Source: Promethearchaeota archaeon (GTDB lineage Archaea > Asgardarchaeota > Lokiarchaeia > Sigyniarchaeales > SOKP01). Taken from it: a stretch of 64,000 nucleotides of DNA. Position 1 is the stretch's first letter. Each line of letters opens with the position of its first letter. Below are positions 5,631-50,492 of this stretch, piece after piece. The notes under the pieces are model-generated. The model ran no database searches. It was not told where the DNA came from and was given only the letters and a program-made list of their open reading frames with translations. The stretch spans positions 52,161 to 116,160 of the forward strand of contig RDOA01000006.1 in NCBI GenBank assembly GCA_011364925.1, read 5' to 3'. The position numbers and the translations under genes were made by a program.

Positions 5631-7088
5631 TTATAATTTGACTTTCTTAAAGTCTACTTGTCCTATTGCTTTAGATATTTTGGAGAGTTCAGTCGTTAAT
5701 GTTACTTCTTTTAGATGTGATTTCCGGATATTCCTTAATTGCGTTAACTGAGGGTTTTCTTCGTTAAATAAGTTAATTTTTTCTTCAGGGTCAGATTTAA
5801 GATCAAATAAAAGCTCCGCATTATTTTGCTCATTATAAATATATTTCAATTGGTTTTTCCTAATAGAAATAAGTTGAAATCCATTTTTACTATTACGTTT
5901 CATTAACCCATCTTTTTGATATGTCTCCGAAATTACACAATCATCTCTTTCTAAAAAACCACCTTCTAATAATGGTAATAGACTTGAACCCTGAAATGAA
6001 TCTGGTATGGGGATACCAAAGTAATCAAGTATTGTAGGAGCAATATCAATTAACTGAACTGTGTTGTTGACTCTCCTTACCAGAGTATTCTTACCGATAT
6101 CAACAATAAACAAAGGTATTCTTAATAATTCATCATATACAATCCCTTGATGGAAAAATTTGTCATGTTCGAAAAATGCTTCACCATGATCAGAGGTAAC
6201 AATAACCAGACAGTTTTTTTGGTATTTTTGGCTCAAAATTTTAAAGAGATAACTTAAGTATGAATCAATATAATTTATCTCTCCATCGTAGAGAATTTTT
6301 AACTTCTCTAACACATCTTTAGAAATACGATGTTTATGAGGATTTCGATAAATGTTGTTATTTAGGAAGTTCCTTTCCTGATTGCTTATATCAACATGAC
6401 TTATCTGAAGAACATTTTTTGAAGGTGGATTGAATGGACTATGAACATCCATAAAATGTGCCCATAAAAACAAGGATTCAGTATGATTTTTAAGAAAAGG
6501 TAAAACTTTATTCGTAATATAAGGAGCATTATATGCGATTGGCGCGAAGGGTAAAAGAATGTCTGTAAGAAATGGTAGTTTATTCCGCAAGAAATTTTTG
6601 AGTTTATTAAAACCTCTTAATCCATAAATCAGTCTCCTAAAAATTTTTTGATAATTCAATATCTTTTTAATGAAGTGAAGTAAATTTGAAGTTTTTTCCT
6701 CATTATCTGGCTTATTCGGATGTTCTTTGAATCTTTCACCATCAAGAAAGACATCAAACCCCCTATGATAATTAAAAAATTTACTTAAATTGGGGTTACT
6801 GTGTATTCCGTAAGTAAAAATACCACTTTCTTTCAGAATTTGAGGAAAGGTTAATTTCTGGGACGGTAAAGGGCTAAATCCTCCATTTATAAGAGGCAAC
6901 ATGGAGGTAAAAATTGATGAAAAAGCAGAAGGTGTTTCTGGTCCATTGGTAAATGCGTTAGAAAAGCTTGTACCATTTTTTACGAACTTTTCTAAATTTG
7001 GTGCCGTATTTCGATGATAACCATATGACTTCAAATGATCTGGCCTTAAAGCATCAATGGTTACTAGAATTACACATTTTTGCACCAT
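5631..7088 (-). CDS. Sulfatase-like AlkP-superfamily enzyme (Thr nucleophile, cytoplasmic)
   Basis: TIDALR, NGPETPSAF, HFMDVH, SDHGE, QLIDIAPT, ELLFDLKSDPEE. No C/S-x-P-x-R motif and no signal peptide. Confidence 0.85.
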   Translation of the reverse strand: MVQKCVILVTIDALRPDHLKSYGYHRNTAPNLEKFVKNGTSFSNAFTNGPETPSAFSSIFTSMLPLINGGFSPLPSQKLTFPQILKESGIFTYGIHSNPNLSKFFNYHRGFDVFLDGERFKEHPNKPDNEEKTSNLLHFIKKILNYQKIFRRLIYGLRGFNKLKNFLRNKLPFLTDILLPFAPIAYNAPYITNKVLPFLKNHTESLFLWAHFMDVHSPFNPPSKNVLQISHVDISNQERNFLNNNIYRNPHKHRISKDVLEKLKILYDGEINYIDSYLSYLFKILSQKYQKNCLVIVTSDHGEAFFEHDKFFHQGIVYDELLRIPLFIVDIGKNTLVRRVNNTVQLIDIAPTILDYFGIPIPDSFQGSSLLPLLEGGFLERDDCVISETYQKDGLMKRNSKNGFQLISIRKNQLKYIYNEQNNAELLFDLKSDPEEKINLFNEENPQLTQLRNIRKSHLKEVTLTTELSKISKAIGQVDFKKVKL

Positions 7089-7182: not shown

Positions 7183-8490
7183 TTAAGTTTTAAATAAATC
7201 TATTGGATCCTTCTCCATATAATAGGGTTTTTCTAGTTTAAATAATTTAAGAATAGTTGGTGCAATTTCTTGATAATGTAGTAGTGGGATTGTCCCCTTT
7301 TTAATGTCTTTTCCATAAGCTATGAACATCCCTTTATTCGTATGACTAAATGTTTCTGTTTTCCTTTTAATAAAGTAAGAGGATTCTGTGGTGAAAAGAT
7401 ATTTATCATCAAGAATCACTACTAAATCAGGAAATCCATTTACATTAAATTCGATTACTTTTTCAATATATTTATCTCTTTCGAGGGTCTCCTTAATTAA
7501 TTGTTTCTTCTTTCTCTCCTCACCAATTAAAAATATCGCGCCTACATTTGATGTAAGCTTTTGAATAAAAGAACGGGGTTTATCCTTATCTAAATGTTGA
7601 AGTGCTCTTTGTTTTTTAAGTTCCGAGTCTCTCTTCTTCGAGATAGCCAATCTATTATATAATTTTTTGGTAAAATCAACCCTCATAATAGGACGTATAT
7701 AATCATAAAGTTTTATAACAAGACTATTTACCTTCAGCTCCCTAGCTTTATTTATGTAAAGTAACCTCTTTTTCTCAAGGAACCGGGGAAAGTGAATAAC
7801 CTTTTTATAAAATTTTAGACCATGGTCACTAAAAATTACAATATTGTCAATAGATTTATTATCAATTAATTCTCCGATAAATTTATCAATTTGTTTATAT
7901 CCAATATTAATGTAAGTATTTACTATCCTTTCGCTACCAAAAACTCGATGAGAAATAGCGTCTGGCACTCGAATAACAAAGGTAAGTAAATTAAAATCCT
8001 CATTTAATTTTTCTAGAAACAGATTTTTCTTGATTTTAAAGGCTTTGAATATCTCTTTTAGCGTTCTACCTTCTATTATCCAATTTTTTTTGTAAATTTG
8101 TTCAAGATTTTTTGGAAATGACGAGAATAAAGGAGATAATATTCCTGCGATCATTTGTCCGTTAATTTCCCAGGCAGGGTATGTTCCAGGGACATTTAAA
8201 GCAAAAATTCGAAGAGCTTTTATTGAAAATATTGATTTATCCCTCCATACATTTGAATTAAAAACACCTTTAATAGGATGGATAAAAGTAAGATAACCTA
8301 GGTTTTCTGGATTTATTCCCGTAAACAAACAAGGCCATGAAGGAATTGTTGTGTGTGGAGTAGTAACTTCTAATTTTGAGGAAAATCCATTTTCAATTAA
8401 ATATTTAAGATTAGGTACTTCATTATTTTCAAGCAAATTTTGAAAACTCTCAAAACAACCTCCATCTATACCGATAATAACATTTTTAAT
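7183..8490 (-). CDS. AlkP-superfamily (type I phosphodiesterase/NPP-like) enzyme (probable ATT start)
   Basis: The frame extends upstream of the called TTG to (I/M)KNVIIGIDGG, which carries the metal-binding Asp. Also TIPSW, PDAISH, SDHG, SH...G.FIAYG, EIAPTIL. Confidence 0.85.
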   Translation of the reverse strand: MKNVIIGIDGGCFESFQNLLENNEVPNLKYLIENGFSSKLEVTTPHTTIPSWPCLFTGINPENLGYLTFIHPIKGVFNSNVWRDKSIFSIKALRIFALNVPGTYPAWEINGQMIAGILSPLFSSFPKNLEQIYKKNWIIEGRTLKEIFKAFKIKKNLFLEKLNEDFNLLTFVIRVPDAISHRVFGSERIVNTYINIGYKQIDKFIGELIDNKSIDNIVIFSDHGLKFYKKVIHFPRFLEKKRLLYINKARELKVNSLVIKLYDYIRPIMRVDFTKKLYNRLAISKKRDSELKKQRALQHLDKDKPRSFIQKLTSNVGAIFLIGEERKKKQLIKETLERDKYIEKVIEFNVNGFPDLVVILDDKYLFTTESSYFIKRKTETFSHTNKGMFIAYGKDIKKGTIPLLHYQEIAPTILKLFKLEKPYYMEKDPIDLFKT

Positions 8491-18244: not shown

Positions 18245-18997
18245 ATGGTTATCGATAATACAGCAATTATAATACAGGCAAGAATGGAATCAACGAGATT
18301 AAGAGGAAAAGTTCTAAAAAACATCTATCGAAATAAAACAATTTTAGATTTGCTTATAGAACACTTAAAAATATTAGATCAGAGGATAATTATTGCTACA
18401 ACCACGAATAAATCAGACGTTAAAATTATCGAAACTGCAAAAAAACATGATTTAGAATGGTTTCGAGGAGATGAACAAAATGTTTTAAAAAGGTATATTG
18501 ATTGTGCAACTGAATACGACATTTCAAAAATAGTTAGAATAACATCTGATAATATTTTTGTTCAACCAGCATTAATAAAACCTTTAATTGATAATAAGAA
18601 TCAAACATTAGATTATATTTCGTATAAAATTGGAGATATAAACGTTGTATTAGCGCACTGGGGTCTGTTTGGTGAATTTGTCACTTTAAGTGCTCTAAAA
18701 AAAGTCCAAATTTCTTCAAAAGCAAAAATGGATTTAGAACACGTAACTTACTATATTTATAATCATGAAGGTGAATTTACCTACGAATATTGGGATGTTC
18801 CTCAAGAATTGAATAGATTAGACATTAGATTGACTATTGATACATTAGAAGATTTTAATATTTGTAAAGAAATTGTAAATTATTTACAGAAAAATAACTT
18901 AGATTGGCATTATAATAATATTTTAGAATACATTGATAGCAACCTAGCTTTAAGGAATAAAATAAAAAGAAATATAGAACGGATTAGAAAGATTTAA
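18245..18997 (+). CDS. spsF: Nonulosonate cytidylyltransferase (SpsF-like)
   Basis: IIQARMESTRLRGKVL, FRGDEQNVLKRY, RITSD, EHVT, RLTIDT.ED. Confidence 0.85.
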   Translation: MVIDNTAIIIQARMESTRLRGKVLKNIYRNKTILDLLIEHLKILDQRIIIATTTNKSDVKIIETAKKHDLEWFRGDEQNVLKRYIDCATEYDISKIVRITSDNIFVQPALIKPLIDNKNQTLDYISYKIGDINVVLAHWGLFGEFVTLSALKKVQISSKAKMDLEHVTYYIYNHEGEFTYEYWDVPQELNRLDIRLTIDTLEDFNICKEIVNYLQKNNLDWHYNNILEYIDSNLALRNKIKRNIERIRKI

Positions 18998-19008
18998 TTG
19001 TTGGTTTA

Positions 19009-20031
19009 ATGTTGCAAAAATTGAAAATATTAATTCGTGTTGATGGATACAACGAAATAGGTTTAGGTCACATTTATAGATCCATTACTTTAGCTAATAG
19101 ATTGAATGAACATGACATACTTTTTGTCTCTATAGAAGAGTATAAATTGGGCATTAAATTAATCGAAAAAAATAATTTTGATTTAAAGACTATCAAAAAT
19201 GATAAAGAATTATTTAATATTATCACAGAATTCAAGCCTACGATAATTATCAATGACATTTTAGACACTAAAAAAAAATACATAGAGGATTTAAAAAAAC
19301 TGAAGCTCTTTGTAGTTAATTTTGAAGATCTTGGAGATGGATCCAAATTAGCAGATTTATTAATAAATGCTCTCTATGAAGAAAGGAGGTCTAAAACAAC
19401 TCACTATTGGGGTAAGGATTACTACATATTGAGAGAAGAGTTTCTTAAGATAGAACACAAATATATCCAAAAAGATATTAAAAATATTTTAATAACTTAT
19501 GGGGGAACTGACCCTAATAACTATACTAAACGAATTTTAAACATTCTTAATGAATTGAAATTAAATAAAGTTAAAATAAATGTAATTCTTGGATTAGGAT
19601 ACAAAGATCCGCATGAATTAATTGATGTTGTAAAAAATCTAGATCTAGATGTTACCATAAAGCAAAATATTAAAAATATAAGTACGTATATGAGTGAAGC
19701 TGACATTGCTTTTACTTCCGCGGGAAGGACGGTTTACGAACTAGCTTCCATAGGCATACCAACAATCGTTTTAGCTCAAAATAAAAGAGAGAATTTGCAT
19801 GTTTTTGCAAAAAAAAGTAATGGTTTTATAAATTTAGGTTTGGGTTATAATTGTTCTGATCAAAATATTAAAGAAACGCTACTTAGGTTGATTAACGATT
19901 TCGAATTGAGAAAGAAATTCAATTATTTGATGTTAAAAAATGATTTAAAGTCTGGTGTAAATAATGTTCTTAACGCAATTTTAACAAATTACAAAAATTA
20001 CAAAAATAGTGAAGTAAATGAAAAAATTTGA
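19009..20031 (+). CDS. NDP-sugar hydrolase, PseG/SpsG family
   Basis: RVDG...IGLGH..R, YGGTDP, SAGRTVYE, QN..E. Lies between spsF and neuB. Confidence 0.85.
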   Translation: MLQKLKILIRVDGYNEIGLGHIYRSITLANRLNEHDILFVSIEEYKLGIKLIEKNNFDLKTIKNDKELFNIITEFKPTIIINDILDTKKKYIEDLKKLKLFVVNFEDLGDGSKLADLLINALYEERRSKTTHYWGKDYYILREEFLKIEHKYIQKDIKNILITYGGTDPNNYTKRILNILNELKLNKVKINVILGLGYKDPHELIDVVKNLDLDVTIKQNIKNISTYMSEADIAFTSAGRTVYELASIGIPTIVLAQNKRENLHVFAKKSNGFINLGLGYNCSDQNIKETLLRLINDFELRKKFNYLMLKNDLKSGVNNVLNAILTNYKNYKNSEVNEKI

Positions 20032-21094
20032 AGACATAATTGAAAAGGATGATGTTTTAATCATAGCTGAATTAGGAGTAAACTATTATGATATAGCAAT
20101 TCAAAAAGACATATCTCCAATGGAAGCTGCAAAATTAATGATTGATGAAGCAAAAAAAAATGGAGCTGATGCTGTAAAATTTCAGTCATATAAAGCAGAA
20201 GATTTAGCCTCAAAAAATGCTGCTGCTTATTGGGATTTAGAAAAGGAGCCATCTACATCGCAACTAGAACTATTTAAGAAGTTTGATAAATTTGGAAAAG
20301 AAGAATACATAGAAATATTTGAATATTGTAAATTTAAAAATATTATATTTTTATCAACTCCTTTCGATTATAAAGCTGTAGATTATTTAAACGATTTAGT
20401 TCCGGTATTTAAAATATCCTCATCGGATATAACTAATATTCCGTTTATCAGATATATCTCTAGTAAAGGTAAACCAATTATTTTGTCTACTGGAGCTGCA
20501 ACGCTTAATGAAATTGAAGAAGCTGTGAGAGCAATAAGATCTATTGGAGATAACCAAATCTACTTCATGCATTGCATCCTAGATTACCCTACTAAATATA
20601 AAGATATTAATCTCAACATGATAAAAACATTAAGAAAATTATTTCCAGATAATATAATCGGTTTTTCAGATCATACCAGACCAGATGAATTCATGTTAGT
20701 ACCTGTAATCGCCTTCGCTTATGGAGCAAGAATTATTGAAAAACATTTCACACTTGATAAAACTATAGTTGGTAATGATCACTACCATGCTATGGACCAA
20801 AACGATTTAAAAAAATTAAGAGAAAATATAAGTTTCGTTAAGTTGATAAGTGGACAATTTGAAATAGAACCTTTAGAATGTGAAAAAATTTCAAGACAGC
20901 AGGCAAGACGAAGCCTTGTAGCGGCTATTGACATATCGAAGGGAGAAATTATAACTCTAGATATGCTAACTTTTAAAAGACCAGGAATTGGAATATCACC
21001 AGCAATGATAGATTCTGTTATTGGTGGAATAGCTTTAGTGGATATAAAAGAAGATGATATACTTACTAGTGAAAAAATTAAATTTAAGGAATAG
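20018..21094 (+). CDS. neuB: Nonulosonic acid synthase (NeuB/SpsE/PseI family)
   Basis: IIAELGVN, AVKFQ, STPFD, KISS, HC..DYP, SDHT, EKHFT, C-terminal SAF domain (RRSL...KRPG.GI). Confidence 0.9.
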   Translation: MKKFEDIIEKDDVLIIAELGVNYYDIAIQKDISPMEAAKLMIDEAKKNGADAVKFQSYKAEDLASKNAAAYWDLEKEPSTSQLELFKKFDKFGKEEYIEIFEYCKFKNIIFLSTPFDYKAVDYLNDLVPVFKISSSDITNIPFIRYISSKGKPIILSTGAATLNEIEEAVRAIRSIGDNQIYFMHCILDYPTKYKDINLNMIKTLRKLFPDNIIGFSDHTRPDEFMLVPVIAFAYGARIIEKHFTLDKTIVGNDHYHAMDQNDLKKLRENISFVKLISGQFEIEPLECEKISRQQARRSLVAAIDISKGEIITLDMLTFKRPGIGISPAMIDSVIGGIALVDIKEDDILTSEKIKFKE

Positions 21095-23862: not shown

Positions 23863-23886
23863 AATGAAATATAATTATATTTCATT
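23863..23886. promoter_or_regulatory. Perfect 24-bp palindrome, candidate operator of the RHH-sat-AlkP-cysC operon
   Basis: AATGAAATATAA|TTATATTTCATT, flanked by ATGTAT (23857-62) and ATACAT (23890-95), 41 nt before the RHH ATG. Confidence 0.55.
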
Positions 23887-23927
23887 TGTATACATTAACA
23901 AAATTATTGAAATGGTTTGAAATTAAA

Positions 23928-24167
23928 ATGTCTGAAGACGAACACAAGGTTGAATATACAACTGTTTCTATCCCTAAACCCTTAGCGGATAAAGTAAAGG
24001 AGCGAATGAAAGGAACAGGCTTTTCATCTGTATCAAGTTATGTTACATATGTACTTAGGCAGGTATTATCCTCAATAGAGCAAGATGAAAAATCAAAACA
24101 AGCGTTTACTAAAGATGAGGAGGATAAAGTCAAACAACGCCTACGAGATTTAGGTTATATCGATTAA
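23928..24167 (+). CDS. CopG/ribbon-helix-helix protein with C-terminal RLxxLGY tail
   Basis: YTTVSIPKPLADKVKE...GFSSVSSYVTYVLR RHH pattern, ending EEDKVKQRLRDLGYID. ATG at 23928. Confidence 0.85.
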   Translation: MSEDEHKVEYTTVSIPKPLADKVKERMKGTGFSSVSSYVTYVLRQVLSSIEQDEKSKQAFTKDEEDKVKQRLRDLGYID

Positions 24168-24199
24168 AACTAATAATAAATGAAAATGTTGATGGAAAA

Positions 24200-25348
24200 A
24201 TGATACATCCACATGGTGGTACATTAATTAATAAGAACTTGCCTGAGATTGAGAAACAAAAAATTTTAGGTGAAAAAGACGAATTTGTGAAAATTCCTAT
24301 AGATTCTGAAACCAAGAAAGTGATAAAGAGTATTGCGTTTGGAATATTTAGCCCGTTAGAAGGATTTATGAATGAAAATGATACTCTGAATGTTCTTGAC
24401 CATATGTATCTAGAAAGTAACATCGCATGGCCTTTTCCCATTGTTTTAGATATTTCAAAGGAGGAGTCCCAAAGGATAAATATCGATGACCATGTAATTT
24501 TAACAAGCATTTCAGATGGACCAATAGCTTTACTCAAAGTAGAAGATATTTACGATTATAATAAAAAGATCTTTGCTGAGAAAGTTTATGGAACAAATGA
24601 TATTAACCATCCCGGAGTTGCAAAGCTATTTAGCCAAAAAGAGAAACTAATTGGTGGTGAGATATTTCTTATCAACGAATTTCCTGCGCAATTTCCAGAA
24701 TTGGACTTAAAACCTATAGAAACGAGAGTTCTTTTTAAAACAAGAGGTTGGGATAAAGTTGTTGCCTTTCAAACAAGAAATCCACCGCATTTAGGTCATG
24801 AATACATTCAAAAGGCAGGATTAACTTTCGTTGACGGTCTTTTTATAAATCCTGTGATAGGAAAAAAGAAAACGGGAGATTTTCGTGATGAGGTAATAAT
24901 TAATGCTTACAAAGCCTTAATTGAAAATTATTACCCTCAAAATCGAGTAGTATTAAGCACATTTGAAACAGAAATGAGATACGCTGGACCAAAAGAGGCA
25001 ATTTTTCATGCAATCGCTCGTAAAAATTTTGGATGTGATCACATAATAATTGGACGAGATCATGCTGGTGTTGGCAATTACTACGGTCCCTACGATGCTC
25101 ATAAAATTTTCGAGAATTTCCCAGATTTAGGAATCGAACCTTTATTTTTTAGATCGTTTTCATATTGTTCTAAATGTAACTCAATAGTAAACGATAAAAT
25201 TTGCCCCCATTCTGCAGATCTTCATAAATTTTTCAGTGGATCTCAAATTAGAGATACTTTATTATCTGGTAAACAACCACAATCAGATGTTATGAGACCT
25301 GAAATAGCAAATATTATTCTAAATTATAAAAATCCATTTTGTGAGTAA
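24200..25348 (+). CDS. sat: Sulfate adenylyltransferase
   Basis: PHGG, FSPLEGFM, FQTRNPPHLGHE, MRYAGPKEA, GRDHAGVG, Zn motif CSKC...CPH, MRPE. Confidence 0.97.
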   Translation: MIHPHGGTLINKNLPEIEKQKILGEKDEFVKIPIDSETKKVIKSIAFGIFSPLEGFMNENDTLNVLDHMYLESNIAWPFPIVLDISKEESQRINIDDHVILTSISDGPIALLKVEDIYDYNKKIFAEKVYGTNDINHPGVAKLFSQKEKLIGGEIFLINEFPAQFPELDLKPIETRVLFKTRGWDKVVAFQTRNPPHLGHEYIQKAGLTFVDGLFINPVIGKKKTGDFRDEVIINAYKALIENYYPQNRVVLSTFETEMRYAGPKEAIFHAIARKNFGCDHIIIGRDHAGVGNYYGPYDAHKIFENFPDLGIEPLFFRSFSYCSKCNSIVNDKICPHSADLHKFFSGSQIRDTLLSGKQPQSDVMRPEIANIILNYKNPFCE

Positions 25349-25357
25349 AGTATTACC

Positions 25358-26743
25358 TTGACACAGAAGAAGAGAGTCTTAGTAATTGGATTGGATTGTG
25401 CTACACCTAAGACCTTATTTGAAGATTTCATAGAACATTGTCCTAATATTAGAAATCTCATGGATAATGGTGTTTATGGAAAATTACGGAGTTCAGATCC
25501 ACCCATCACTGTTCCTGCTTGGATGATAATGTCAACGGGTCGCAATGCAGGAGAACTTGGACTCTATGGATTTCGGCACAGGAAGGGTAATTCTTATTCA
25601 GATTTTTGGGTCGCTAATTCTCAAAGCGTAAAAGAACTTAAGATATGGGATATTATTGCCAAGAAGGGTTTAAAATCTATAATTGTCGGTGTCCCTCCTA
25701 CTTTTCCAGCTCAGCCGATCAATGGAAATCTTATTACAGGTTTTATTACACCTGACACCCTTTCACAATTTACATTCCCTCCTGAGTTAAAAGAAGAAAT
25801 ACTTCATGTCGTTAAAGACTACGAGTTTGATGTAAAGTTTAGAACAGATAACAAGGAACAACTTCTGATTGATCTATATAAACTTACAAGGAAACATTTT
25901 GAAGTAGTGAAATATTTAATAATGAATAAGGAATGGGATTATTGTCAATTTGTCATCATCGGTTTAGATCGATTTCACCACGCATTTTGGAAATATTACG
26001 ATAAGAGTCATCACAAATACGAACCAGGGAACATCTTTGAAAGTGCTATGAAAAAGTTCTATAATTTCCTCGACAATCAAATTGGGGACCTGCTTAAACT
26101 CTTGAACAAAAATGATGTAGTTATTATTGCCTCAGATCACGGCGCAAAAGCGATGAAAGGTTGTTTATGCGTAAATATGGCTTTAGAACAACTTGGATTG
26201 CTGAAATTCAAAGAAAAACCTACTGCTAAAACAAGATTAGAAGACGCAGAGATTGACTGGAAGAATACTTATGCTTGGGGTTGGGGCGGTTATTATGCAA
26301 GAGTATTTTTAAATGTAAAAGGTAGGGAGTCAACGGGAATAATTGAACCAGAAGAATATGAAAAATGGAGAGAGAAATTAATAGCTTTATTGAAACAAAT
26401 CACTGATGATAAAGGAGAACCAATGGATACTAAGATTTATAAACCAGAAGATTTATATCAAATTGTGCGTGGAGATGCTCCAGATCTTATGGTATACTTC
26501 GATGATTTAAATTGGAGGTCTGCTGGGACTGTTGGATATGAATCAATGTATCTCGATGAAAATGATACTGGTCCAGATGATGCTGTACACGATTATTATG
26601 GAATATTTGTAATTTCTTCTTTAAATCGAAAAATTGGCAAAGATTTAGAAGTGAAAAGTATTTTAGACATAACTCCTACAATATTAAATATCTTGGGGAT
26701 AGAAATTCCGGAAGATCTAAAAGGAACGATTATAGAATTTTAA
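25358..26743 (+). CDS. AlkP-superfamily (type I phosphodiesterase-like) enzyme within the sat-cysC operon
   Basis: IGLDCA, PPITVPAW, DRFHH, SDHG, GPDDAVH, DITPTIL. No signal peptide. Confidence 0.9.
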   Translation: MTQKKRVLVIGLDCATPKTLFEDFIEHCPNIRNLMDNGVYGKLRSSDPPITVPAWMIMSTGRNAGELGLYGFRHRKGNSYSDFWVANSQSVKELKIWDIIAKKGLKSIIVGVPPTFPAQPINGNLITGFITPDTLSQFTFPPELKEEILHVVKDYEFDVKFRTDNKEQLLIDLYKLTRKHFEVVKYLIMNKEWDYCQFVIIGLDRFHHAFWKYYDKSHHKYEPGNIFESAMKKFYNFLDNQIGDLLKLLNKNDVVIIASDHGAKAMKGCLCVNMALEQLGLLKFKEKPTAKTRLEDAEIDWKNTYAWGWGGYYARVFLNVKGRESTGIIEPEEYEKWREKLIALLKQITDDKGEPMDTKIYKPEDLYQIVRGDAPDLMVYFDDLNWRSAGTVGYESMYLDENDTGPDDAVHDYYGIFVISSLNRKIGKDLEVKSILDITPTILNILGIEIPEDLKGTIIEF

Positions 26744-26769
26744 GAAAAAAAATGTAAATAAGGATAAAT

Positions 26770-27303
26770 ATGGAGCATAAAGGATTCACATTATGGTTTA
26801 CAGGGCTTGCCTGTTCGGGAAAATCTGTTTTAGCTAATGTCGTAGCCGAAGATCTTAAAAAACGAGGGATGAAAGTTGAACGTCTTGATGGAGATATTGT
26901 AAGAAAAGGTTTAACGCGAGATTTAGGATTCTCAGACGAGGATAGAAGAATGAATATTGAAAGAGTTACATTTGTGGCAAAATTGTTGACTAGAAACGGA
27001 GTAGCAGTTTTAGCTTCTTTTATATCTCCTTTTAACGATATTAGGGCTTACTCTCGTAAAGAGATTGGAACTTATATTTTAGTGTATGTAAAATGTCCCA
27101 TCGAAGTATGTGAACAAAGAGATATAAAGGGGATGTACGCAAAAGCCAGAGCTGGCGAAATCAAGCAGTTTACAGGTATTGATTCACCGTTTGAGGAACC
27201 AAATAAGGCTGATATTGTTGTAGAAACTGATAAGCAAACGATTGAAGAGAGCAAGAAAGTAATTTTAGATGCCTTGAGTGAGATGGGATATTTACCAGAT
27301 TAA
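26770..27303 (+). CDS. cysC: Adenylyl-sulfate kinase
   Basis: WFTGLACSGKS, LDGD.VR, DLGFS..DR..N, ISP, RD.KG.Y..AR.G.I..FTGIDSPFEEP. Confidence 0.97.
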   Translation: MEHKGFTLWFTGLACSGKSVLANVVAEDLKKRGMKVERLDGDIVRKGLTRDLGFSDEDRRMNIERVTFVAKLLTRNGVAVLASFISPFNDIRAYSRKEIGTYILVYVKCPIEVCEQRDIKGMYAKARAGEIKQFTGIDSPFEEPNKADIVVETDKQTIEESKKVILDALSEMGYLPD

Positions 27304-29890: not shown

Positions 29891-32800
29891 TTAATCTTCT
29901 GCTCTGGTAAAACTAAATGTTATCGTTTTTATATTTTCCTTACTTAAATTAGCATTACAGTGAGGGCATTTTACTTCTTTAGTTTTTTTCAGTTTAGCTA
30001 AAATATTCTCTTTTAAGGTCGCCAAACATTCTTGGTTGGGGCAAACATACAGTTTTCCATATACATAATCTTTTTCTTCATTCAATTCACTTATGACAAT
30101 ATCTAATTTCTTAGCAGTAACTTTCTCTGATATCGCATCCTTATTCTGGCTAAGAAAACCAGCTAAAGATTTATCTGTTGTACCTAAAGATAATGCTATT
30201 TCTTCTCCTACTTTATAATTGTTATTTTTTCGAGAAAATTGAATGTGTCTGATTAGATCACTAGTTATTCTTTCTGCCAAAAGCTCTTGATCCAGTGTTA
30301 TATCAAGATATATGTTTGCGTATTTTGATTCTGCTTTTAATAAACTCCCTTCTTCCTCAAATGATTTAGCAATTTCAAGATCTTTTACATTTGCCATTTG
30401 TTTTATAATGTCTGGGAACAAAATCTCAGGCATTCCTTCTTTTGGTTCAATTATAATTCTTTTGTTAGGCCAACGTAATCTTATTTTGTTTTCGTCTTTT
30501 ATCGCTCTTACACTCTCTATTAAATCTCTGGTAAAGTCCATTTGTTGTTCCAAATCTAAATCAATCTGATCTTCCTCATAAACAGGCCAATTCTGCAAAT
30601 GGATACTCTGATGATACTCTAAACCCAATAATTTTGCGTTTGATTGGAACATCTTCAAATATATCTCTTCTGTTAACATAGGATTCACTGGAGCTAAGAT
30701 AAGTAAAAATTGGAATAATACCTTAAATAACACAGCCATAATCTGTTCTTTTTGAGGATCGTCTGAATAAATATCCAATTTTTCTCGATTCAACATTATA
30801 TACCATCGACTTACATCATTTACAATAAAATCTCTTAACTCTCCCGTGATCCAAGGTAATTCATACTTATCGGCAAGCTCAGTGACTTTCTTGATGATGG
30901 AATGGGTCCGAGATAGCATCCATTTATCAAGCTTACTTATTCTATTGATATCGTATTTCGATTTTGAGGGATCAAACTCTGCCAATTGAAATTTCTCATT
31001 TGCATATACATAAACATTCCATATGGTATTTAAAATTTTAAATGTATCTGCATATTCCTTTACGCTGAAATTAAAATCTCTTCCTGGTTGGGTTGCACCA
31101 ATTGAATAAAATCTAAAGGTCTCCACTCCCTTGATTTGTGAATATGATTTCTTCTTTTGGAGCTCTTGTATAGTCCCATCAATTATATCCTCAGGATTAA
31201 TTGAACCACCTTTGGATTTACTCATTTTTTGTTTATCACGTAAAACCCATCCATGCATATAGCATGCATGATAATTTTTTCTGTTTGAAGAGAGCATCGC
31301 ACTACTTAAGAGCGCGTTGAACCAACCCCGAATTTGGTCTTTTCCTTCTATGATAAAATCCGCGGGAATCCAAGATTCAAAGTTACTTTCTCCGTCGTAA
31401 GTTTCTTGTGAAGCCCATATCACAGAACCAGAATCTAACCATACATCGGAAATATCGGGGATTCTTTTTTTTGTTCCTCTATTACATTTTTCACATTTCC
31501 AAGTAACTTTGTCAATCCATGGCCGATGCAAGTCATCTGGACATTGACCAGAGATTCTTTTTAATTCCATTGCAGATCCGATTACAGTCACATCTTTACA
31601 TTCTTCATTGTCACAAATCCAAATGCTTAAAGGTATTCCCCAGAATCGTTGTCGTGAGAGACACCAATCTTTTAAAGTGGTTAACCAACTTTTAAACCAC
31701 CTACTTCCTGCCCAATCAGGTATCCAATAGATTTCCTCATTCTTTTTAAGTAAATCATCTTTGAGATCCTCCGTTTTAAAAAACCATTGATTGCTTGCAC
31801 GATATACTAATTTAGAATCACAGCGCCAACAATGGGCATACTCATGTTCTATTTCACTAGTTAGGATTAATGTGCCTTTTTTTTTTAGCAATTCTAGTAT
31901 CTCATTATTTGCATCGAATACAAATTGACCTTCGAATTTACCTGCTTCTTTAGTATAAATTCCTCTAATATTAACAGGATTGAAAACTGGTATGCCATTG
32001 GCAACTCCTACTTCAAAATCTTCGGGACCATGCCCGGGAGCGCTATGTACTAAGCCTACGCCTTCAGATACAGAAACATACTCCTCAGAAAGAATTATTG
32101 TATGTACCTTATTGCTTTCTTTTTCAAGTTCTTTTTGATATGGAACTTCTTCCGCGAGTGGATGAATATATTTCATGCCTTCAAGTTCCTCTCCAACAAT
32201 ATCTTCCACGATTTTGTATTTATATCCTAACTCTCCAGAGATTAAATGAGTAATTGCTGCTTTCGCTAAGATCCAATACTCATTTAAATCCTCTATTTTT
32301 ACTTTGGCATACTCTGCAATCGGATTAGCCATGATTGCTTCATTTGCTACTAAGGTCCACGGGGTAGTTGTCCAAATAATAAAATATGTGTCTTCCATGT
32401 CAGCAGATTTGAACTTTACAAATAGACTGGTATCCACAATATTCTTATAATCATGCTCATGTTTCGCAAGTGCGGTAGCGCATCGAGGACAGCAGTTTAA
32501 AGGTCGATAAAATTGATAAAGTAATCCTTTCTCCCAACTCTTTTTTAAAGTCCACCATATTCCTTCAATGTAACTATTGCGAAAAGTTATGTAGGGATTA
32601 TCCCAATCCCAAAATGAACAGCCAAGCCGCTTAAATTGATTATTCATAATTTCGAGATTTTTAAGAGCAAATTCCTTACAGTCCTTGATAAATTTATCCA
32701 CACCATAGTCGTAAATTTCTTGTTTATTGGCAATTCCTAATTCTTTTTCCATTTGAACTTCTATAGGTAATCCGTGTGTATCATACCCAGGAGTGTCGGT

Positions 32801-33043
32801 TACCCGAAATCCCCTCATTCTTTTGTATTTGATTAGAAAATCTTTTAAAATTTTATTCCACGCGGTCCCTAAATGAATTTCACCAGTTGTATAGGGAGGT
32901 CCATCGATAAACCTCCATACTTCTTTATCTTTTTCTTTTTCTCTGATCAAGGAGTAAATGTTTTCTTTCTCCCATAGATCTAAAATTTTCTCTTCTAACT
33001 TTCGTAAATCTAAGCGTTTATTTAATGTTTCCAAGTAGATCAT
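29891..33043 (-). CDS. ileS: Isoleucine--tRNA ligase, archaeal type
   Basis: DGPPY, HLGT (HIGH), GYDTHGLP, WTTTPWT, SRQRFWG, EGKDQIRGWF, KMSKS. Confidence 0.97.
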   Translation of the reverse strand: MIYLETLNKRLDLRKLEEKILDLWEKENIYSLIREKEKDKEVWRFIDGPPYTTGEIHLGTAWNKILKDFLIKYKRMRGFRVTDTPGYDTHGLPIEVQMEKELGIANKQEIYDYGVDKFIKDCKEFALKNLEIMNNQFKRLGCSFWDWDNPYITFRNSYIEGIWWTLKKSWEKGLLYQFYRPLNCCPRCATALAKHEHDYKNIVDTSLFVKFKSADMEDTYFIIWTTTPWTLVANEAIMANPIAEYAKVKIEDLNEYWILAKAAITHLISGELGYKYKIVEDIVGEELEGMKYIHPLAEEVPYQKELEKESNKVHTIILSEEYVSVSEGVGLVHSAPGHGPEDFEVGVANGIPVFNPVNIRGIYTKEAGKFEGQFVFDANNEILELLKKKGTLILTSEIEHEYAHCWRCDSKLVYRASNQWFFKTEDLKDDLLKKNEEIYWIPDWAGSRWFKSWLTTLKDWCLSRQRFWGIPLSIWICDNEECKDVTVIGSAMELKRISGQCPDDLHRPWIDKVTWKCEKCNRGTKKRIPDISDVWLDSGSVIWASQETYDGESNFESWIPADFIIEGKDQIRGWFNALLSSAMLSSNRKNYHACYMHGWVLRDKQKMSKSKGGSINPEDIIDGTIQELQKKKSYSQIKGVETFRFYSIGATQPGRDFNFSVKEYADTFKILNTIWNVYVYANEKFQLAEFDPSKSKYDINRISKLDKWMLSRTHSIIKKVTELADKYELPWITGELRDFIVNDVSRWYIMLNREKLDIYSDDPQKEQIMAVLFKVLFQFLLILAPVNPMLTEEIYLKMFQSNAKLLGLEYHQSIHLQNWPVYEEDQIDLDLEQQMDFTRDLIESVRAIKDENKIRLRWPNKRIIIEPKEGMPEILFPDIIKQMANVKDLEIAKSFEEEGSLLKAESKYANIYLDITLDQELLAERITSDLIRHIQFSRKNNNYKVGEEIALSLGTTDKSLAGFLSQNKDAISEKVTAKKLDIVISELNEEKDYVYGKLYVCPNQECLATLKENILAKLKKTKEVKCPHCNANLSKENIKTITFSFTRAED

Positions 33044-39024: not shown

Positions 39025-41544
39025 TTAATCGAAGAGATTGAATGGGGAAATTTGCCGTATTATCTCTCTCATTTTCGTTTCAATTTTATCAGATTCTTTC
39101 TTATAATTAAGATTTAATAGGTTAACCTTTTGAATGACTGCTTCTAAAGAAGGGTTTTCTCGAATATCAAAATAATATTGTAATTGTCCAAATTGGGTTA
39201 ATAAGTCAAAATATTTAGCAGCCCAACCTATAACAACAGTAGGAACGCCATTCTTGTAAGCTTGAATTACTGAATGATATCTTGAAGTAATTAAAAAGTC
39301 AAATTGTTTTGTAACATTTTCTAATTCAATCGAATTTAATTCCTCGACTACAACTTCTACATTCGCATTATTTAGGAATTTATCCTTCAAACTTTTACAG
39401 TAAGCTAAATCTTCATAAGAGTTATATAGAATGTAGACGTTTTTACCTGATTTTAATAAAGTCTGGATGATCGTATAGTACATAGAATCTATGAATTCCC
39501 TATTAGTTCTCGCTAAAACTCTCGCATTAGGAACTACTCCAACCGAATTTTGCTCGATGTTAACCTTTTTCAGTTCAAAATTTTTAGTTATAATATTGGA
39601 AATGTCTTCAAATTTATGAAGTAATACTATATCGTGGCTTATTTTAATATTTTCGTGTGTAAACCTTCTAACACTTCTATAACTATCTTTTTCTCTACAA
39701 TAAATCACTTTTGGGTATCCTAAGTACCACTTTAAAAGAGGATAAAGAAAAATTCTTTCTCTCAATCTGAAATCAAAAGGTCCAATAGCTTGAGGAAATA
39801 TGTAATATGGGATAGAAAATTGTTTAGCCAGAATTATATTGATCAAAAATGGGATCCAAACATATTCCCGGATATCGGAAGACAGCGCAAATCCACTTAA
39901 ATCAATAATAATTGATTTTTTTAAAATGGCTGTCGCTTTTGATCTGAAATTATTAATAAATGAGCTGCTAGAGAGATAATTAAATGGAAATCCCAAAACG
40001 ATAAATTTCTCATTAGTCGTCCAAGGGATTAATTCAATTTTAAAATACTTTCTTTTATCGTTAAATAAATCTTGATAACTATTAGTAAAATTAAAAAAAT
40101 TATAGTGATCTTGCCGTTTTTTGATTTGATCTAATGCGATCAATGTCATTGCTTGAGAACCTTCGTTGAAAAATTTGCCACCAATTATTACAATATTATT
40201 TCTTTTAATTTCGCTAGATTTTATTCTTCTTTTACTTATGAGAAATCCTTTTAATAAAATTAAGGGAGGTAAAATGAATTTACCAGTTTGGTTAATAATT
40301 ACTAATAAAAGTTTCCTAATGCTTTGTAAGTATTCTGTTTTTATTAATTCGTATTTAATTTTTCTTTTTCTATAAATTTCGCCCCATTTAACATACTTTT
40401 GCAATTTCTCTAACTTTTCTTTATCTGAGAGGTTAATTTGATATTCTTCCCCCATTTTTGGGATTAATCCCTTTTCTTTTACTAATACTTTAGAAAAGAT
40501 GAATTGTTCTTTTTCATTTTGTATATTTTGGGACTCCCAGATCTGTTCTATAGGTTCATTTTCAAGATTAAATAAGTAAGAGTATTTCTCAAAAATCATT
40601 TTTCCTTTTTCTGTTCGAATTAAGATATTTGATGTACCTTTTACACCTTGTTTTTTTTTAATGTAACAATCGGCAAATACTATATCAGCGTTAGAATTTG
40701 CTTTATCGAAACAAAACAAACATCTGTTTAATCCAAAATATTTTTTTAAATTTGTTCTGATAGTTTTATCTAATATCAATTTTCTTCCAGAGTTAAAAAT
40801 TATTTTTGAGTTCCCTGGCCAACCATATTTCTCTTTTGTCCGATAGATATATTCTTTTATTATTTCTCTATGCTTAGAATAAATATCCTGCATAAAATGT
40901 AAATAATTGAAATTTAGTGTTGACGAACAAAAAAGTCCCAGAAATAAAATATTATTTGCATCAATTTTGTTCGATGTAATGAATTTCTTTATCCCAGATA
41001 ACTGACACGGAGTTCCGATTATTATTACTTTATCTTTAGAATTTTCATTTAATTTTTTAATAACATTAAAAACTGATGCTGGCAGGTACTTGGATTTAGC
41101 AGATTTAACGATTTTAGGGATTTCGTTGGTTTCTTCTAATCTTACGGGTGAATTTTCAAAAAAGTTAAAATCTAATATAAAAACGCTCTTATATTCATTA
41201 GTTCGTATTAGTTCTTTTATAAGAGTTGTAATTACTCCACCACTGGTGGAGTTAAATCGCAATTTTTTATCTTTAGTATAAGCAGTATAGCTTTCTATAA
41301 TGTTACCTTTGATGATCATATCGATACTTTTCTCTTTTCTAATTTTTTGAGGAATGAGATCAATACCAGGACAATTATCAAGGCATTTTAGGCACTTTAT
41401 GCACTTTTCCTCATCTATTTTGGGTTGAAATATACCTTGTGAAAATTCCATCGATATAGCTTCTTCTGGGCACACAGCAAGACAAATTTCACAAGAAACG
41501 CAGAGATCTAGATTACGGGTCTTTAAAACAGTAGATTCATTCAT
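39025..41544 (-). CDS. Fusion of 2x[4Fe-4S] ferredoxin/FrhB-family domain and polysaccharide pyruvyltransferase-family domain
   Basis: CVSCEIC..VCP, CIKCLKC..NCP, STSGG, GTPCQ, GLFC, then NEG..AM, PQAIGPF, CRE..S, TSRYH. Probable ATG at 41544. Confidence 0.85.
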   Translation of the reverse strand: MNESTVLKTRNLDLCVSCEICLAVCPEEAISMEFSQGIFQPKIDEEKCIKCLKCLDNCPGIDLIPQKIRKEKSIDMIIKGNIIESYTAYTKDKKLRFNSTSGGVITTLIKELIRTNEYKSVFILDFNFFENSPVRLEETNEIPKIVKSAKSKYLPASVFNVIKKLNENSKDKVIIIGTPCQLSGIKKFITSNKIDANNILFLGLFCSSTLNFNYLHFMQDIYSKHREIIKEYIYRTKEKYGWPGNSKIIFNSGRKLILDKTIRTNLKKYFGLNRCLFCFDKANSNADIVFADCYIKKKQGVKGTSNILIRTEKGKMIFEKYSYLFNLENEPIEQIWESQNIQNEKEQFIFSKVLVKEKGLIPKMGEEYQINLSDKEKLEKLQKYVKWGEIYRKRKIKYELIKTEYLQSIRKLLLVIINQTGKFILPPLILLKGFLISKRRIKSSEIKRNNIVIIGGKFFNEGSQAMTLIALDQIKKRQDHYNFFNFTNSYQDLFNDKRKYFKIELIPWTTNEKFIVLGFPFNYLSSSSFINNFRSKATAILKKSIIIDLSGFALSSDIREYVWIPFLINIILAKQFSIPYYIFPQAIGPFDFRLRERIFLYPLLKWYLGYPKVIYCREKDSYRSVRRFTHENIKISHDIVLLHKFEDISNIITKNFELKKVNIEQNSVGVVPNARVLARTNREFIDSMYYTIIQTLLKSGKNVYILYNSYEDLAYCKSLKDKFLNNANVEVVVEELNSIELENVTKQFDFLITSRYHSVIQAYKNGVPTVVIGWAAKYFDLLTQFGQLQYYFDIRENPSLEAVIQKVNLLNLNYKKESDKIETKMREIIRQISPFNLFD

Positions 41545-41788
41545 TGTACTTTTAAATAAAAATTTTACCTCATAGCGATTCTTATTATAGAGAGGTTCTT
41601 CCAAATCTATATTTTGCAAAAGGTATTAAAAAATAAAAACCTTATTTGAAAGCCAAGCTCAATCTAAATAGAAGGAGAATAAATTTTTGAATTATAGGAT
41701 TTAATAAAATAGCGATTAATTATAAGGGAATTAAGTATTTTTTAATCATAGAATATTTTAAAAACCATACATAAAAAGAAGGTTAATC

Positions 41789-43692: not shown

Positions 43693-45024
43693 ATGCAAAA
43701 ATTAATCTTCTTAGCCTTAGATGGATTAAGTTGGAATATGATCGAAGAATTAATTGCTAATAAGCAATTAACTAATATTAAAGCCTTAATCGACTCAGGC
43801 TCTTCAGCACTTTTAAAAGCTGAGGGTTTTTTAAGCTCTCCAAAAATTTTTTGTTCAATCTTCACTGGTAAAAAAGTGGAAAAGCATGGGATTAGGGATT
43901 TTTACTCGAAAGAAGAAGATTTATGTTCTGAGCAGATTTGGGATATCTTAAACCAAGATGGAATTAAAGTTGGTCTGTATAGACCGTTGAGTGTTTGGTC
44001 TGCTAGAGATTTAGGTGGATTCTGTATACCTAATCCTTTACTATTAGAAAAAGAAACATTTCCTCAAAATTTAAGCTTCATTGGAGAACTTGACAAAAAA
44101 GCTCGATCAGAAAAGTATTCTCTCGCTTTTTTATTAAAATTTTTCTGGAAACTCGTAAAATTTGGCTTTCCATTAGGTGAGTTAAGTAAAATTATTAAAA
44201 GAGGTGTTTTATTGTTTTTTAAAAAAGGATTGGAAGAAAGAATGCACCTCTTAAAAGAAATAGAACTAATTATTCATACAAATTTATATTACAAGTTATT
44301 AAAAAAATATTCTTTACAGTTTACTGTATTTTTTGATTACTCGTTTGATACACTAGGTCATATTTATTGGAGGAAGAAAGGCGAAAAATCGAAGTATTCA
44401 AATATTATACCAAAAACATATAGAATTGTTGATAAGTTTGTAGGAAAAGTAATAAGATACGCAAATGAAAACAAATTTCACTTGATTATTTGCTCCGATC
44501 ACGGTTTTGAAAAAATAGAAAAGAATAATCAAAAAAATTACCGCGCTATTAACATATTAAACCTATTAAGAGAATTAGGGTTTTATTACGATGTATACGG
44601 AATTTATATGACTGAAAGCGTTGTATTTCGTTTACGACCAGATTCGTCTGGTTCGTTTAAAGATTTCGAGAGAGCGTTAAGCATAGTAAAATGTGATGGT
44701 AAAAATCTCTTTATTATAAAATCTTATGAAAAGAAACTTATCGTAAAAATTAACGATATTTTTGGAGATAATGAAAATTTAAAGGTTGAGTTACCGAATA
44801 ATAAAACAGTTGTTTTAGGATCCATAATTGATTTTAATCCTGGACACACTGGCACTCATTCTGAGGATAATGGTGTCTTCATAATTAATGGTCCACAGGT
44901 AAAGAAAGGTATAAAAATTAATGAAATAACTCCATACGATATTACACCTACTATCCTAAAGCTTTATGGAAAAGAAGTGCCTATTGACATTGATGGAAGA
45001 GTATTAGAAGAGGTTTTTAAATAA
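43693..45024 (+). CDS. AlkP-superfamily enzyme (probable Ser nucleophile, cytoplasmic)
   Basis: LALDGL, LSSPKIFCSIFTG, DTLGH, SDHGF, GTH, DITPTIL, DGRVL. Confidence 0.85.
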   Translation: MQKLIFLALDGLSWNMIEELIANKQLTNIKALIDSGSSALLKAEGFLSSPKIFCSIFTGKKVEKHGIRDFYSKEEDLCSEQIWDILNQDGIKVGLYRPLSVWSARDLGGFCIPNPLLLEKETFPQNLSFIGELDKKARSEKYSLAFLLKFFWKLVKFGFPLGELSKIIKRGVLLFFKKGLEERMHLLKEIELIIHTNLYYKLLKKYSLQFTVFFDYSFDTLGHIYWRKKGEKSKYSNIIPKTYRIVDKFVGKVIRYANENKFHLIICSDHGFEKIEKNNQKNYRAINILNLLRELGFYYDVYGIYMTESVVFRLRPDSSGSFKDFERALSIVKCDGKNLFIIKSYEKKLIVKINDIFGDNENLKVELPNNKTVVLGSIIDFNPGHTGTHSEDNGVFIINGPQVKKGIKINEITPYDITPTILKLYGKEVPIDIDGRVLEEVFK

Positions 45025-49103: not shown

Positions 49104-50492
49104 ATGACGCCTAATGTGTTAATTACAGGTGGCCTTGGATATATTGGTAGTGTTCTATACGAGATTCTACAAGAAGAGGGCTGGAATGTAGAGATTTTAG
49201 ATAATCATCTCTACAAAGAACTTAAACCTACTAATCCCTTTATAGATGTAGACATAAGAGACAAGGATACCTTAAAGAAGCATATACAAAATTACGATGT
49301 TATAATTAATTTAGCAGCAGTTGTTGGAGATCCCGCCTGTTTGATTGATACAAATCTAGCTATAGATATAAATTGCATTGGAACTAGATATATTGCTGAA
49401 CTTTGCAACAAATACAATAAGAAAATAGTTCATATTAGCACATGCAGTATTTATGGAAGTGAACCTAATGTCATTGTAAAAGAAGAAGACGAAGGCTTTC
49501 CAATTGATTTTTATGGACAAACAAAATATACTCAAGAGCGTATAGTGAGAGATATATGCCACGATAACTTTTGTGTTTTACGATTAGGTACAGCATACGG
49601 TTTAAGTCCTAGAATGAGATACGATTTAGTTGTAAACACTTTTGCCGCAAGAGCGATTAAATTCAATAAAATCACAGTTTTTGGTGGAAAACAGGAAAGA
49701 CCTTTCGTTCACATAAGAGATATTTCAAGAGCAATAGTTCATGTAATTAAAAATGACTTAACAGGAGTTTATAATGTAAGAGGCGAAAATCTAAGCCTTT
49801 TGAAATTGAGTGAAATTGTAAAAGAGATTACAAGTTGTCAAGTTGAGATAAACACAAATATAACCGACAATAGGAGTTATATGGTTGATAGCACTAAATT
49901 ACTCAGCACTGGTTTCGAGTTTAAGTATCATATAGCTGATGCAATAGAAGAAATTAAAAATTCTCCAACGGCTTTAGAGATGCACAAGGGAATATATTCT
50001 AATATGAAGCTAGCTGAAAGGATTAGAATAGATAGGACTATTGGAATGAAGGATTTGCAAATTATTCCTGGAGGAATCGCTGTTGATGATCGAGGGAGTC
50101 TGTCTTTTGCTAATGACTTCAATTTCTATGGTGTGAAAAGATTTTATCAAGTTCAAAATTTTTCGACTTCGACAATTCGAGCATTTCATGGGCATTTAAA
50201 AGAAGCTAAATATGTATTTGTAGCAAAGGGATCCGCGATTGTAGCAGCTGTAAAACTAGACAATATTAAGTCTCCTTCTAAAAATCAAAAAGTTAATCGA
50301 TTTATCCTCTCTGATAAAAATCCGCAAGTATTACTTATCCCTCCAAAATACGCAAATGGCTTCAAGCCATTAGAAGAAGACACTCGAATTCTATTCTTTT
50401 CAACTAGTTCTTTAGAAGAAAGTAAGGGTGACGATTATCGCTTCCCTGTTGATTATTGGGGTAACGAAGTCTGGCAGGTAGAAAATCGCTAA
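49104..50492 (+). CDS. Fusion of nucleotide-sugar SDR and RmlC-like cupin (epimerase)
   Basis: GGLGYIG, STCSIYG, YGQTK, then DDRG, IRAFHGH..E.K, IPP..ANGF. Confidence 0.85.
   Translation: MTPNVLITGGLGYIGSVLYEILQEEGWNVEILDNHLYKELKPTNPFIDVDIRDKDTLKKHIQNYDVIINLAAVVGDPACLIDTNLAIDINCIGTRYIAELCNKYNKKIVHISTCSIYGSEPNVIVKEEDEGFPIDFYGQTKYTQERIVRDICHDNFCVLRLGTAYGLSPRMRYDLVVNTFAARAIKFNKITVFGGKQERPFVHIRDISRAIVHVIKNDLTGVYNVRGENLSLLKLSEIVKEITSCQVEINTNITDNRSYMVDSTKLLSTGFEFKYHIADAIEEIKNSPTALEMHKGIYSNMKLAERIRIDRTIGMKDLQIIPGGIAVDDRGSLSFANDFNFYGVKRFYQVQNFSTSTIRAFHGHLKEAKYVFVAKGSAIVAAVKLDNIKSPSKNQKVNRFILSDKNPQVLLIPPKYANGFKPLEEDTRILFFSTSSLEESKGDDYRFPVDYWGNEVWQVENR

Follow-up and report, generated by a model that had tools for sequence, protein, structure and literature searches.

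A PAPS operon of an Asgard archaeon, its tailed RHH protein and a possible sulfuryl relay to glycan enzymes

What uses the PAPS (3'-phosphoadenosine 5'-phosphosulfate) made by an operon that lies among the surface-glycan genes of a Promethearchaeota archaeon? We analysed a stretch of 64,000 nucleotides from contig RDOA01000006.1 (the window), which contains four adjacent genes for a small ribbon-helix-helix (RHH)-like protein, the ATP sulfurylase Sat, an enzyme of the alkaline phosphatase (AlkP) superfamily that we call the core AlkP, and the adenosine 5'-phosphosulfate (APS) kinase CysC. Comparison of genomes showed that the core AlkP is interchangeable with a P-loop sulfotransferase and that a short C-terminal tail of the RHH protein, RLxxLGY, accompanies both enzymes. 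The tail is also predicted to dock at the core active site. These observations led us to a tentative proposal in which the sulfuryl group of PAPS would be carried by a tyrosine of the tail.

PAPS synthesis and its possible consumers

The RHH-like gene (23928-24167, + strand) encodes a CopG/RHH-like protein of 79 amino acids, counted from its ATG, with an acidic helix and RLxxLGY at its C-terminus. It is followed by sat (24200-25348), the core AlkP gene (25358-26743) and cysC (26770-27303), all on the + strand and separated by gaps of 32, 9 and 26 nt. This is the arrangement described by an earlier annotation made from the letters of the window (the sequence-only reading), which reported four co-oriented genes in the order RHH-sat-AlkP-cysC with gaps of 9-32 nt. 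Its order of the genes was right; its operon start at 23863 lies 65 nt upstream of the RHH ATG. Sat matched TIGR00339 with 373.7 bits and CysC matched TIGR00455 with 233.6 bits, both above the family cut-off, and each is present as a single copy in the genome. The chemistry of Sat plus CysC is PAPS synthesis, and by family assignment of these two enzymes the operon makes PAPS.

The host genome is a metagenome-assembled genome of 112 contigs that is 100% complete by markers. Searches of the whole genome found no match to the PAPS/APS reductase family PF01507 (positive in 14/14 control genomes) or to the sulfite reductase family PF01077 (positive in 11 of 14). Assimilatory sulfate reduction is ruled out by these results, and the PAPS is thus left without a reductive sink. 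The window itself holds no PAPS reductase, no sulfite reductase and no P-loop sulfotransferase (PF13469/PF00685). The sequence-only reading had claimed the absence of all three; for the reductases this extends to the whole genome, but for the sulfotransferase it is true of the window only. One classical sulfotransferase is encoded on contig C27 (L003:9061-10197) and is a possible conventional consumer of PAPS. By inspection, its gene adjoins glycosyltransferase-like and several radical-SAM-like genes. PF03567 and PF09037 had no match in the genome, and the control genomes likewise gave none.

In 15 of 33 sampled core-bearing Asgard genomes, one of them a closed chromosome, neither PF13469 nor PF00685 was matched, and PF01507 is also missing in three of these 15. 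The host genome encodes two membrane pyrophosphatase motifs, three DHH proteins and one inositol-monophosphatase/CysQ-family protein outside the window, which provides other routes for pyrophosphate (PPi) and for 3'-phosphoadenosine 5'-phosphate (PAP).

We then considered 80 related loci. Beside the AlkP gene, sat was found in 75, cysC in 69 and the RHH gene in 72, and many of the loci that lack one of these genes are cut by contig ends. This conserved neighbourhood indicates that the operon arrangement is not due to chance. Fusions of sat-core, core-sat and cysC-core-tail type were also observed among the relatives. The sequence-only reading had proposed profiling the co-occurrence of sat-AlkP-cysC with glycan loci, and glycan genes were present in 37 of the 44 related loci longer than 15 kb. 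A bacterial-type promoter model applied to this archaeal host gave 22 sites against 17.1 +/- 3.8 expected, and no clear conserved operator was evident in the AT-rich upstream regions.

The core AlkP, the RHH tail and a replacing sulfotransferase

The core AlkP is a tail-less protein of 461 amino acids that belongs to PF01663 and is of COG3379 type. Its two-metal site is complete (D13, T51, D204, H208, D260, H261 and H411) and invariant in 41 homologues. A search of PDB sequences with the core gave no match. However, when the predicted structure (mean pLDDT 79.5) was searched with Foldseek and VIA-align, the best matches were ENPP/NPP structures; against Xac NPP (7mw8) the model gave a Z of 23.7 and an rmsd of 4.2 over 334 aligned residues, with all seven active-site positions shared. 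Identity to the NPP/ENPP structures is 14-18%, and the core differs from those enzymes in that it is cytoplasmic, tied to PAPS synthesis and exchangeable for a sulfotransferase. By predicted fold and metal site the core resembles the NPP family, whose members hydrolyse nucleotide phosphodiester or pyrophosphate bonds.

Core proteins are 65-84% identical across Promethearchaeota, and the core is 49-56% identical to copies from Bathyarchaeia, Nitrososphaeria, Aminicenantia and Omnitrophota. This is too conserved for an enzyme of variable glycans, which makes it more likely, as judged from sequence conservation, that the core acts on a single fixed acceptor or substrate pair. The same conservation argues against the sequence-only reading where it had the sat-linked AlkP act on lipid-linked glycans. 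A gene for a DHH protein, which in Pyrococcus is a biochemically proven pAp phosphatase (PMC8268124), is absent from the 64-kb window and lies between sat and the core in 7 of the 80 related loci. Its place beside the core suggests that PAP is released and that the core is not needed for PAP removal. As the two coexist in one operon, we rejected the core as a pAp phosphatase. Over all the readings weighed below, it is likely that the core serves in sulfuryl transfer.

The tail of the RHH protein spans F60-D79 (24105-24164, + strand), with the codon for Tyr77 at 24156-24158. We collected 739 RHH homologues, of which the best 120 are 86-97% identical. Tail positions L72, L75, G76 and Y77 are invariant. 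Within the genome RLxxLGY is unique to the RHH protein and is missing from the four window AlkPs. Elsewhere many AlkP enzymes end in this tail, among them proteins of haloarchaeal glycan loci, and translation of the published cloning primers for Agl30 and Agl31 (PMC11980604) gives HLEDLGYL and LEELGYT at their ends. The tail was also found on a DUF2061 protein where the RHH gene is missing (L080), on Sat (L078) and on CysC (L087). The sequence-only reading had treated the RHH protein as a mere regulator and overlooked this tail, apparently the key part of the system.

Two further observations concern this tail. The end of CysC (27280-27303 and related loci) reads L..MGYL, like a short version of the tail end, and has neither the acidic helix nor the Arg. 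Two to three tailed RHH paralogues surround one operon in each of L189 (G018), L134 (G059) and L136 (G107).

A complex model of RHH residues 47-79 with the core gave a score of 0.81, while the best of three controls gave 0.02. The mark used for this score is passed by 58 of 80 solved pairs and 2 of 110 mismatched pairs and is a rough guide here, where our own alignments and zinc were used. The model runs share at least 70% of contacts, with a partner pLDDT of at least 71. The predicted interface on the core comprises residues 50-52, 71-73, 309-312, 389-391 and 402-404, which are the nucleophile and family-invariant loops, and Tyr77 contacts F72/R73 of the core. As a prediction and not a demonstration, this model supports binding of the tail at the core active site. 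We found no paper on the tail or on a tyrosine-sulfate relay in a literature search that left subscription journals mostly outside.

The core is replaced in some operons. In genomes G009, G020 and G509 the gene order is RHH-sat-DHH-X-cysC, where X is a P-loop sulfotransferase of 195 amino acids and occupies the slot that the core takes in genomes such as G037. Using a family profile search we found this small sulfotransferase in 22 of 398 Asgard genomes. A core orthologue was found in none of the 22; the best matches there are partial paralogues with at most 212 bits, compared with 448-914 bits for orthologues. The tailed RHH protein is kept in 15 of the 22 genomes. Ten of these 15 belong to the host's own family and have RHH-sat-cysC with an essentially unchanged tail, and in two other genomes the small sulfotransferase lies between a tail-less sulfatase-like gene and the tailed RHH gene. 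Among 121 Asgard genomes, the tailed RHH protein occurred together with the core in 34 cases and was also found in core-less operons. We had considered the core-less RHH-sat-cysC operons as evidence against a link between tail and core and dropped this, as all of them are in genomes with the small sulfotransferase. Three genomes with a tailed RHH protein have neither enzyme, and in these the relevant genes lie at contig ends.

A quick tree of Sat requires four switches between the core and the small sulfotransferase, at least two of which are forced by well-supported branches. The structural model of the small sulfotransferase is closest to the tyrosylprotein sulfotransferases (TPSTs) TPST1, TPST2 and tick TPST (Z 13.1-13.3, rmsd 3.0-3.3). 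Among 72 longer homologues of this enzyme, 65 contain AlkP sequence or are fusions with it, and in 56 L..L..LGY follows directly after the AlkP domain. Bacterial copies are mostly one chain of the form AlkP-tail-TPR-sulfotransferase. In another archaeal phylum, represented by 151 genomes, the ones searched gave no match to the small sulfotransferase. These genomic comparisons show that core and P-loop sulfotransferase can stand in for each other and that the tail accompanies both. They also agree with the idea of the sequence-only reading that AlkPs replace classical sulfotransferases, insofar as Asgard genomes other than the host have a P-loop sulfotransferase in the core slot.

Two Bacteroidota-type AlkP-tail-TPR-sulfotransferase fusions (L164:9838-12640 and L165:9871-12604) lie outside glycan loci; their start is overlapped by an open reading frame of 48-60 amino acids, and a type IX secretion cargo gene follows. 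In G101 (L182:9683-10443), a genome with many other sulfotransferases, the gene after the small sulfotransferase encodes an RHH protein truncated before the tail.

A proposed sulfuryl relay and its alternatives

We propose, with a confidence that falls somewhat short of an even chance, a two-step relay in which the sulfuryl group passes from PAPS to the tail tyrosine, then to acceptor AlkPs and on to the surface glycan. Sat and CysC would supply the PAPS. The core, as a PAPS-dependent loader, is predicted to take the RHH tail in trans at its active site and would pass the sulfuryl group, probably via Thr51, onto the invariant Tyr77, freeing PAP. The sulfate on Tyr77, an aryl sulfate, may then be the donor for the tail-less AlkPs encoded at 5631, 7183 and 43693, whose own Thr or Ser would hand it to sugar hydroxyls of lipid-linked glycans, as is thought for Agl30/Agl31. 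In other lineages the small TPST-like enzyme would do the loading instead of the core. Dimerisation of the carrier is probably the task of the RHH domain, which may also regulate the operon. A broader and still more tentative claim is that a large class of prokaryotic enzymes, at present annotated as sulfatases or phosphodiesterases, are glycan sulfotransferases with protein-borne sulfotyrosine as their immediate donor; in this claim RLxxLGY would be the carrier, with loading from PAPS by either an NPP-fold or a small TPST-like enzyme.

Several points weigh against the relay. We infer every one of its catalytic steps, and the model of tail and core gives contacts and no distance between the Tyr77 hydroxyl and Thr51. 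NPPs attack the alpha-phosphorus and not sulfur, so the full NPP site of the core counts against it. The tail may be a lid only, since there are core orthologues that have it in cis. In ten genomes the gene for the small sulfotransferase has no linkage to the operon, a likeness to TPSTs is expected for any member of PF13469, and a non-protein sulfotransferase nearly ties the TPST match (Z 12.3). Both loaders are present in the bacterial locus L087 and in 1 of 23 non-Asgard core genomes. The host has the classical sulfotransferase on C27. Finally, neither APS kinase nor PF13469 was matched in the Haloferax volcanii control genome, yet sulfation of Agl30/31 type occurs in that organism, and haloarchaea would thus need another donor or loader.

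We also weighed three other explanations. The core could itself transfer sulfate from PAPS to one fixed acceptor, be it a small molecule, a nucleotide sugar or a glycan. The tail would then stay unmodified and serve as a structural lid or activator by which AlkP active sites are completed in cis or in trans. This is near the view of the sequence-only reading, and we consider it rather unlikely. Exchange in the same slot and mutual exclusion would fit any shared sulfation step, the complex model shows docking and not chemistry, and the tail is present in cis on many AlkPs besides those cores, including Agl30/31, which remain functional with C-terminal tags (PMC11980604). However, at least 13 operons have lost the core and kept a nearly unchanged tail. 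In G068 and G302 the tail directly adjoins the small P-loop enzyme, and the AlkP-tail-TPR-sulfotransferase fusions incorporate it. A need of other AlkPs for a lid would leave unexplained why the displacing enzyme travels with the tail.

That the core is a housekeeping hydrolase of PPi, or of APS, PAPS or PAP, while the C27 sulfotransferase uses the PAPS and the RHH protein is a regulator only, seems improbable to us. Such a role would suit the NPP fold with its complete two-metal site, an operon in a window without the DHH phosphatase, and the occurrence of the C27 sulfotransferase family near cysC in some relatives. It does not explain how a P-loop sulfotransferase, which cannot stand in for a hydrolase, replaces the core, nor why DHH and core coexist in one operon. 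The genome has pyrophosphatase motifs, DHH proteins and a CysQ-family protein elsewhere, 15 of the 33 core genomes lack a classical sulfotransferase, and C27-like sulfotransferases are also found in same-genus genomes in which no cysC was found. We hold it quite improbable that modification of the tail, by sulfation or by adenylylation in the manner of NPPs, is a regulatory mark through which the core signals the PAPS level to an RHH repressor, with glycan sulfation a separate matter. The fusion of the tail to an equally conserved DNA-binding-type domain is consistent with a mark of this kind, and predicted docking and replacement by a TPST-like enzyme would fit any protein-modifying enzyme. 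Against this, the tail is also borne by DUF2061, Sat, CysC and AlkP proteins without a DNA-binding domain, the RHH part has diverged while the tail was kept in some core-less genomes, and the upstream regions show no evident conserved operator.

Returning to the relay, its acceptor side would be formed by three further AlkPs of the window. The gene at 5631-7088 (- strand) encodes a sulfatase-like AlkP (PF00884) with Thr52 at the position of the formylglycine Cys, no CxPxR and no tail; it is 32% identical to a tailed haloarchaeal glycan-locus 'sulfatase' and is a candidate acceptor-side sulfotransferase. The PF01663 paralogues at 7183-8490 (- strand, Thr nucleophile) and 43693-45024 (+ strand, Ser at the nucleophile position) also have no tail and are candidate acceptor-side enzymes. 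None of the four AlkPs has a stretch resembling a transmembrane helix (maximum 19-residue Kyte-Doolittle mean 1.3), in line with the sequence-only reading, which had placed three more cytoplasmic AlkPs among the glycosyltransferases. In the gene at 7183-8490 the first standard start, a TTG at 8436, would drop the first metal-binding Asp, and an in-frame ATT at 8490 restores it, which suggests use of this non-canonical start.

We rejected formylglycine sulfatases as the identity of the four window AlkPs, since their nucleophiles are Thr, Thr, Thr and Ser and the Arg of C/S-x-P-x-R is missing; three proteins elsewhere in the genome have the formylglycine sulfatase motif. Tail-less Asgard AlkPs often end in a basic helix (E..I..I..L), as at L058:5620-7212, L140:13704-17280 and L006:2053-3411, and these ends resemble the tail minus GY.

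Related systems and the surrounding glycan locus

By gene family and order, which also make its core the putative counterpart of PYCH_17550, the operon is a member of an archaeal CopG-sat-(DHH)-NPP-cysC cluster that has been published for Pyrococcus yayanosii (pych_17520-17560, CopG-sat-DHH-NPP-cysC) and is also present in other archaea (PMC8268124). In that paper PPi hydrolysis by the NPP-type phosphodiesterase is a guess, the absence of any sulfotransferase or sulfite reductase from P. yayanosii is noted, and the significance of the cluster is called unclear; the passages used here mention neither the tail nor core displacement. The two clusters have the same gene classes in the same order, adjacent and co-oriented, and differ in that the window copy has no DHH gene and is set within a glycan locus that has three more AlkPs.

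In Halobacterium salinarum, sulfation of the dolichol-linked N-glycan depends on two AlkP-superfamily proteins of a glycosylation cluster, Agl30 and Agl31, as deletion and heterologous expression show; PAPS is never mentioned for them (PMC11980604). Agl7 of Haloferax volcanii is also required for sulfation (PMC3892788). Like Agl30/31, the 5631 enzyme is a sulfatase-like AlkP among glycosyltransferases. Unlike them, it has no LGY tail in cis; in the window a separate protein bears the tail, with the PAPS operon adjacent. By analogy the window enzymes may work as Agl30/31 do, and we do not claim membership in that group. A scan of metagenomes with the Agl30 primer found no contig, and the comparison covers the primer-encoded ends of Agl30/31. 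The claim of the sequence-only reading that AlkPs sulfate glycans from PAPS is helped by this haloarchaeal precedent and by the missing reductive sink, but the C27 enzyme can also consume PAPS.

Acyl relays of the MBOAT-SGNH type, PatA/PatB (PMC12148441) and DltX, offer an analogy, as in these a group passes from one active site to another on an invariant Tyr of a short C-terminal motif. These systems and the proposed RHH-tail relay would share the decoration of a cell-envelope polymer as their aim. There is no homology, however, and the acyl systems move an acyl and not a sulfuryl group and cross a membrane. TPSTs sulfate Tyr in acidic peptides. TPST1/2 are the nearest structures, at 16-18% identity, to the small core-displacing enzyme, which is not encoded in the host genome, and differ in that eukaryotic tyrosine sulfate is an end product and not a donor.

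Neither the operon (PMC8268124) nor AlkP-type glycan sulfation (PMC11980604) is new. We did not find the trans-acting tail, its predicted docking or the substitution of a TPST-like enzyme for the core in the papers searched. The tail joins two questions, a PAPS operon without a known consumer and haloarchaeal AlkP 'sulfotransferases' without a known donor or mechanism. If the relay is correct, it would be an undescribed way of sulfating glycans, and thousands of 'sulfatases' and 'phosphodiesterases' would be biosynthetic (3,918 clusters match the core profile at E <= 1e-30). Sulfuryl transfer would be established as an activity of an NPP site, genomes could serve to predict sulfated surfaces, and sulfated glycans and TPST-like tyrosine sulfation would be indicated in Asgard archaea. 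A paper on the Asgard glycoproteome mentions a sulfated sugar only for Sulfolobales (PMC11284389).

The surface-glycan biosynthesis region extends over 4378-58145 and contains GT2, GT4 and flippase-like genes, genes for NDP-sugar enzymes and NeuB. A tRNA synthetase gene and one or more unrelated genes interrupt it. The operon and the AlkP genes are surrounded by glycosyltransferases, a flippase-family gene, NeuB, a cytidylyltransferase and NDP-sugar enzymes. By inspection, the tRNA synthetase gene (29891-33043, - strand) is isoleucyl-tRNA synthetase-like, and such a gene lies near the operon in 16 related loci. Genes for a cytidylyltransferase, a GT28-C protein and NeuB-SAF at 18245-21094 (+ strand) amount to nonulosonic acid synthesis in an Asgard archaeon. 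An 864-aa fusion of ferredoxin and FrhB-type domains with a polysaccharide pyruvyl transferase domain is encoded at 39025-41619 (- strand), and an NAD-dependent epimerase fused to a dTDP-sugar 3,5-epimerase domain at 49104-50492 (+ strand). Beyond the glycan genes there are, by inspection, a roadblock-like protein (59009-59497, + strand) and a Rab-like small GTPase (63203-63730, - strand), both typical Asgard eukaryotic-signature genes.

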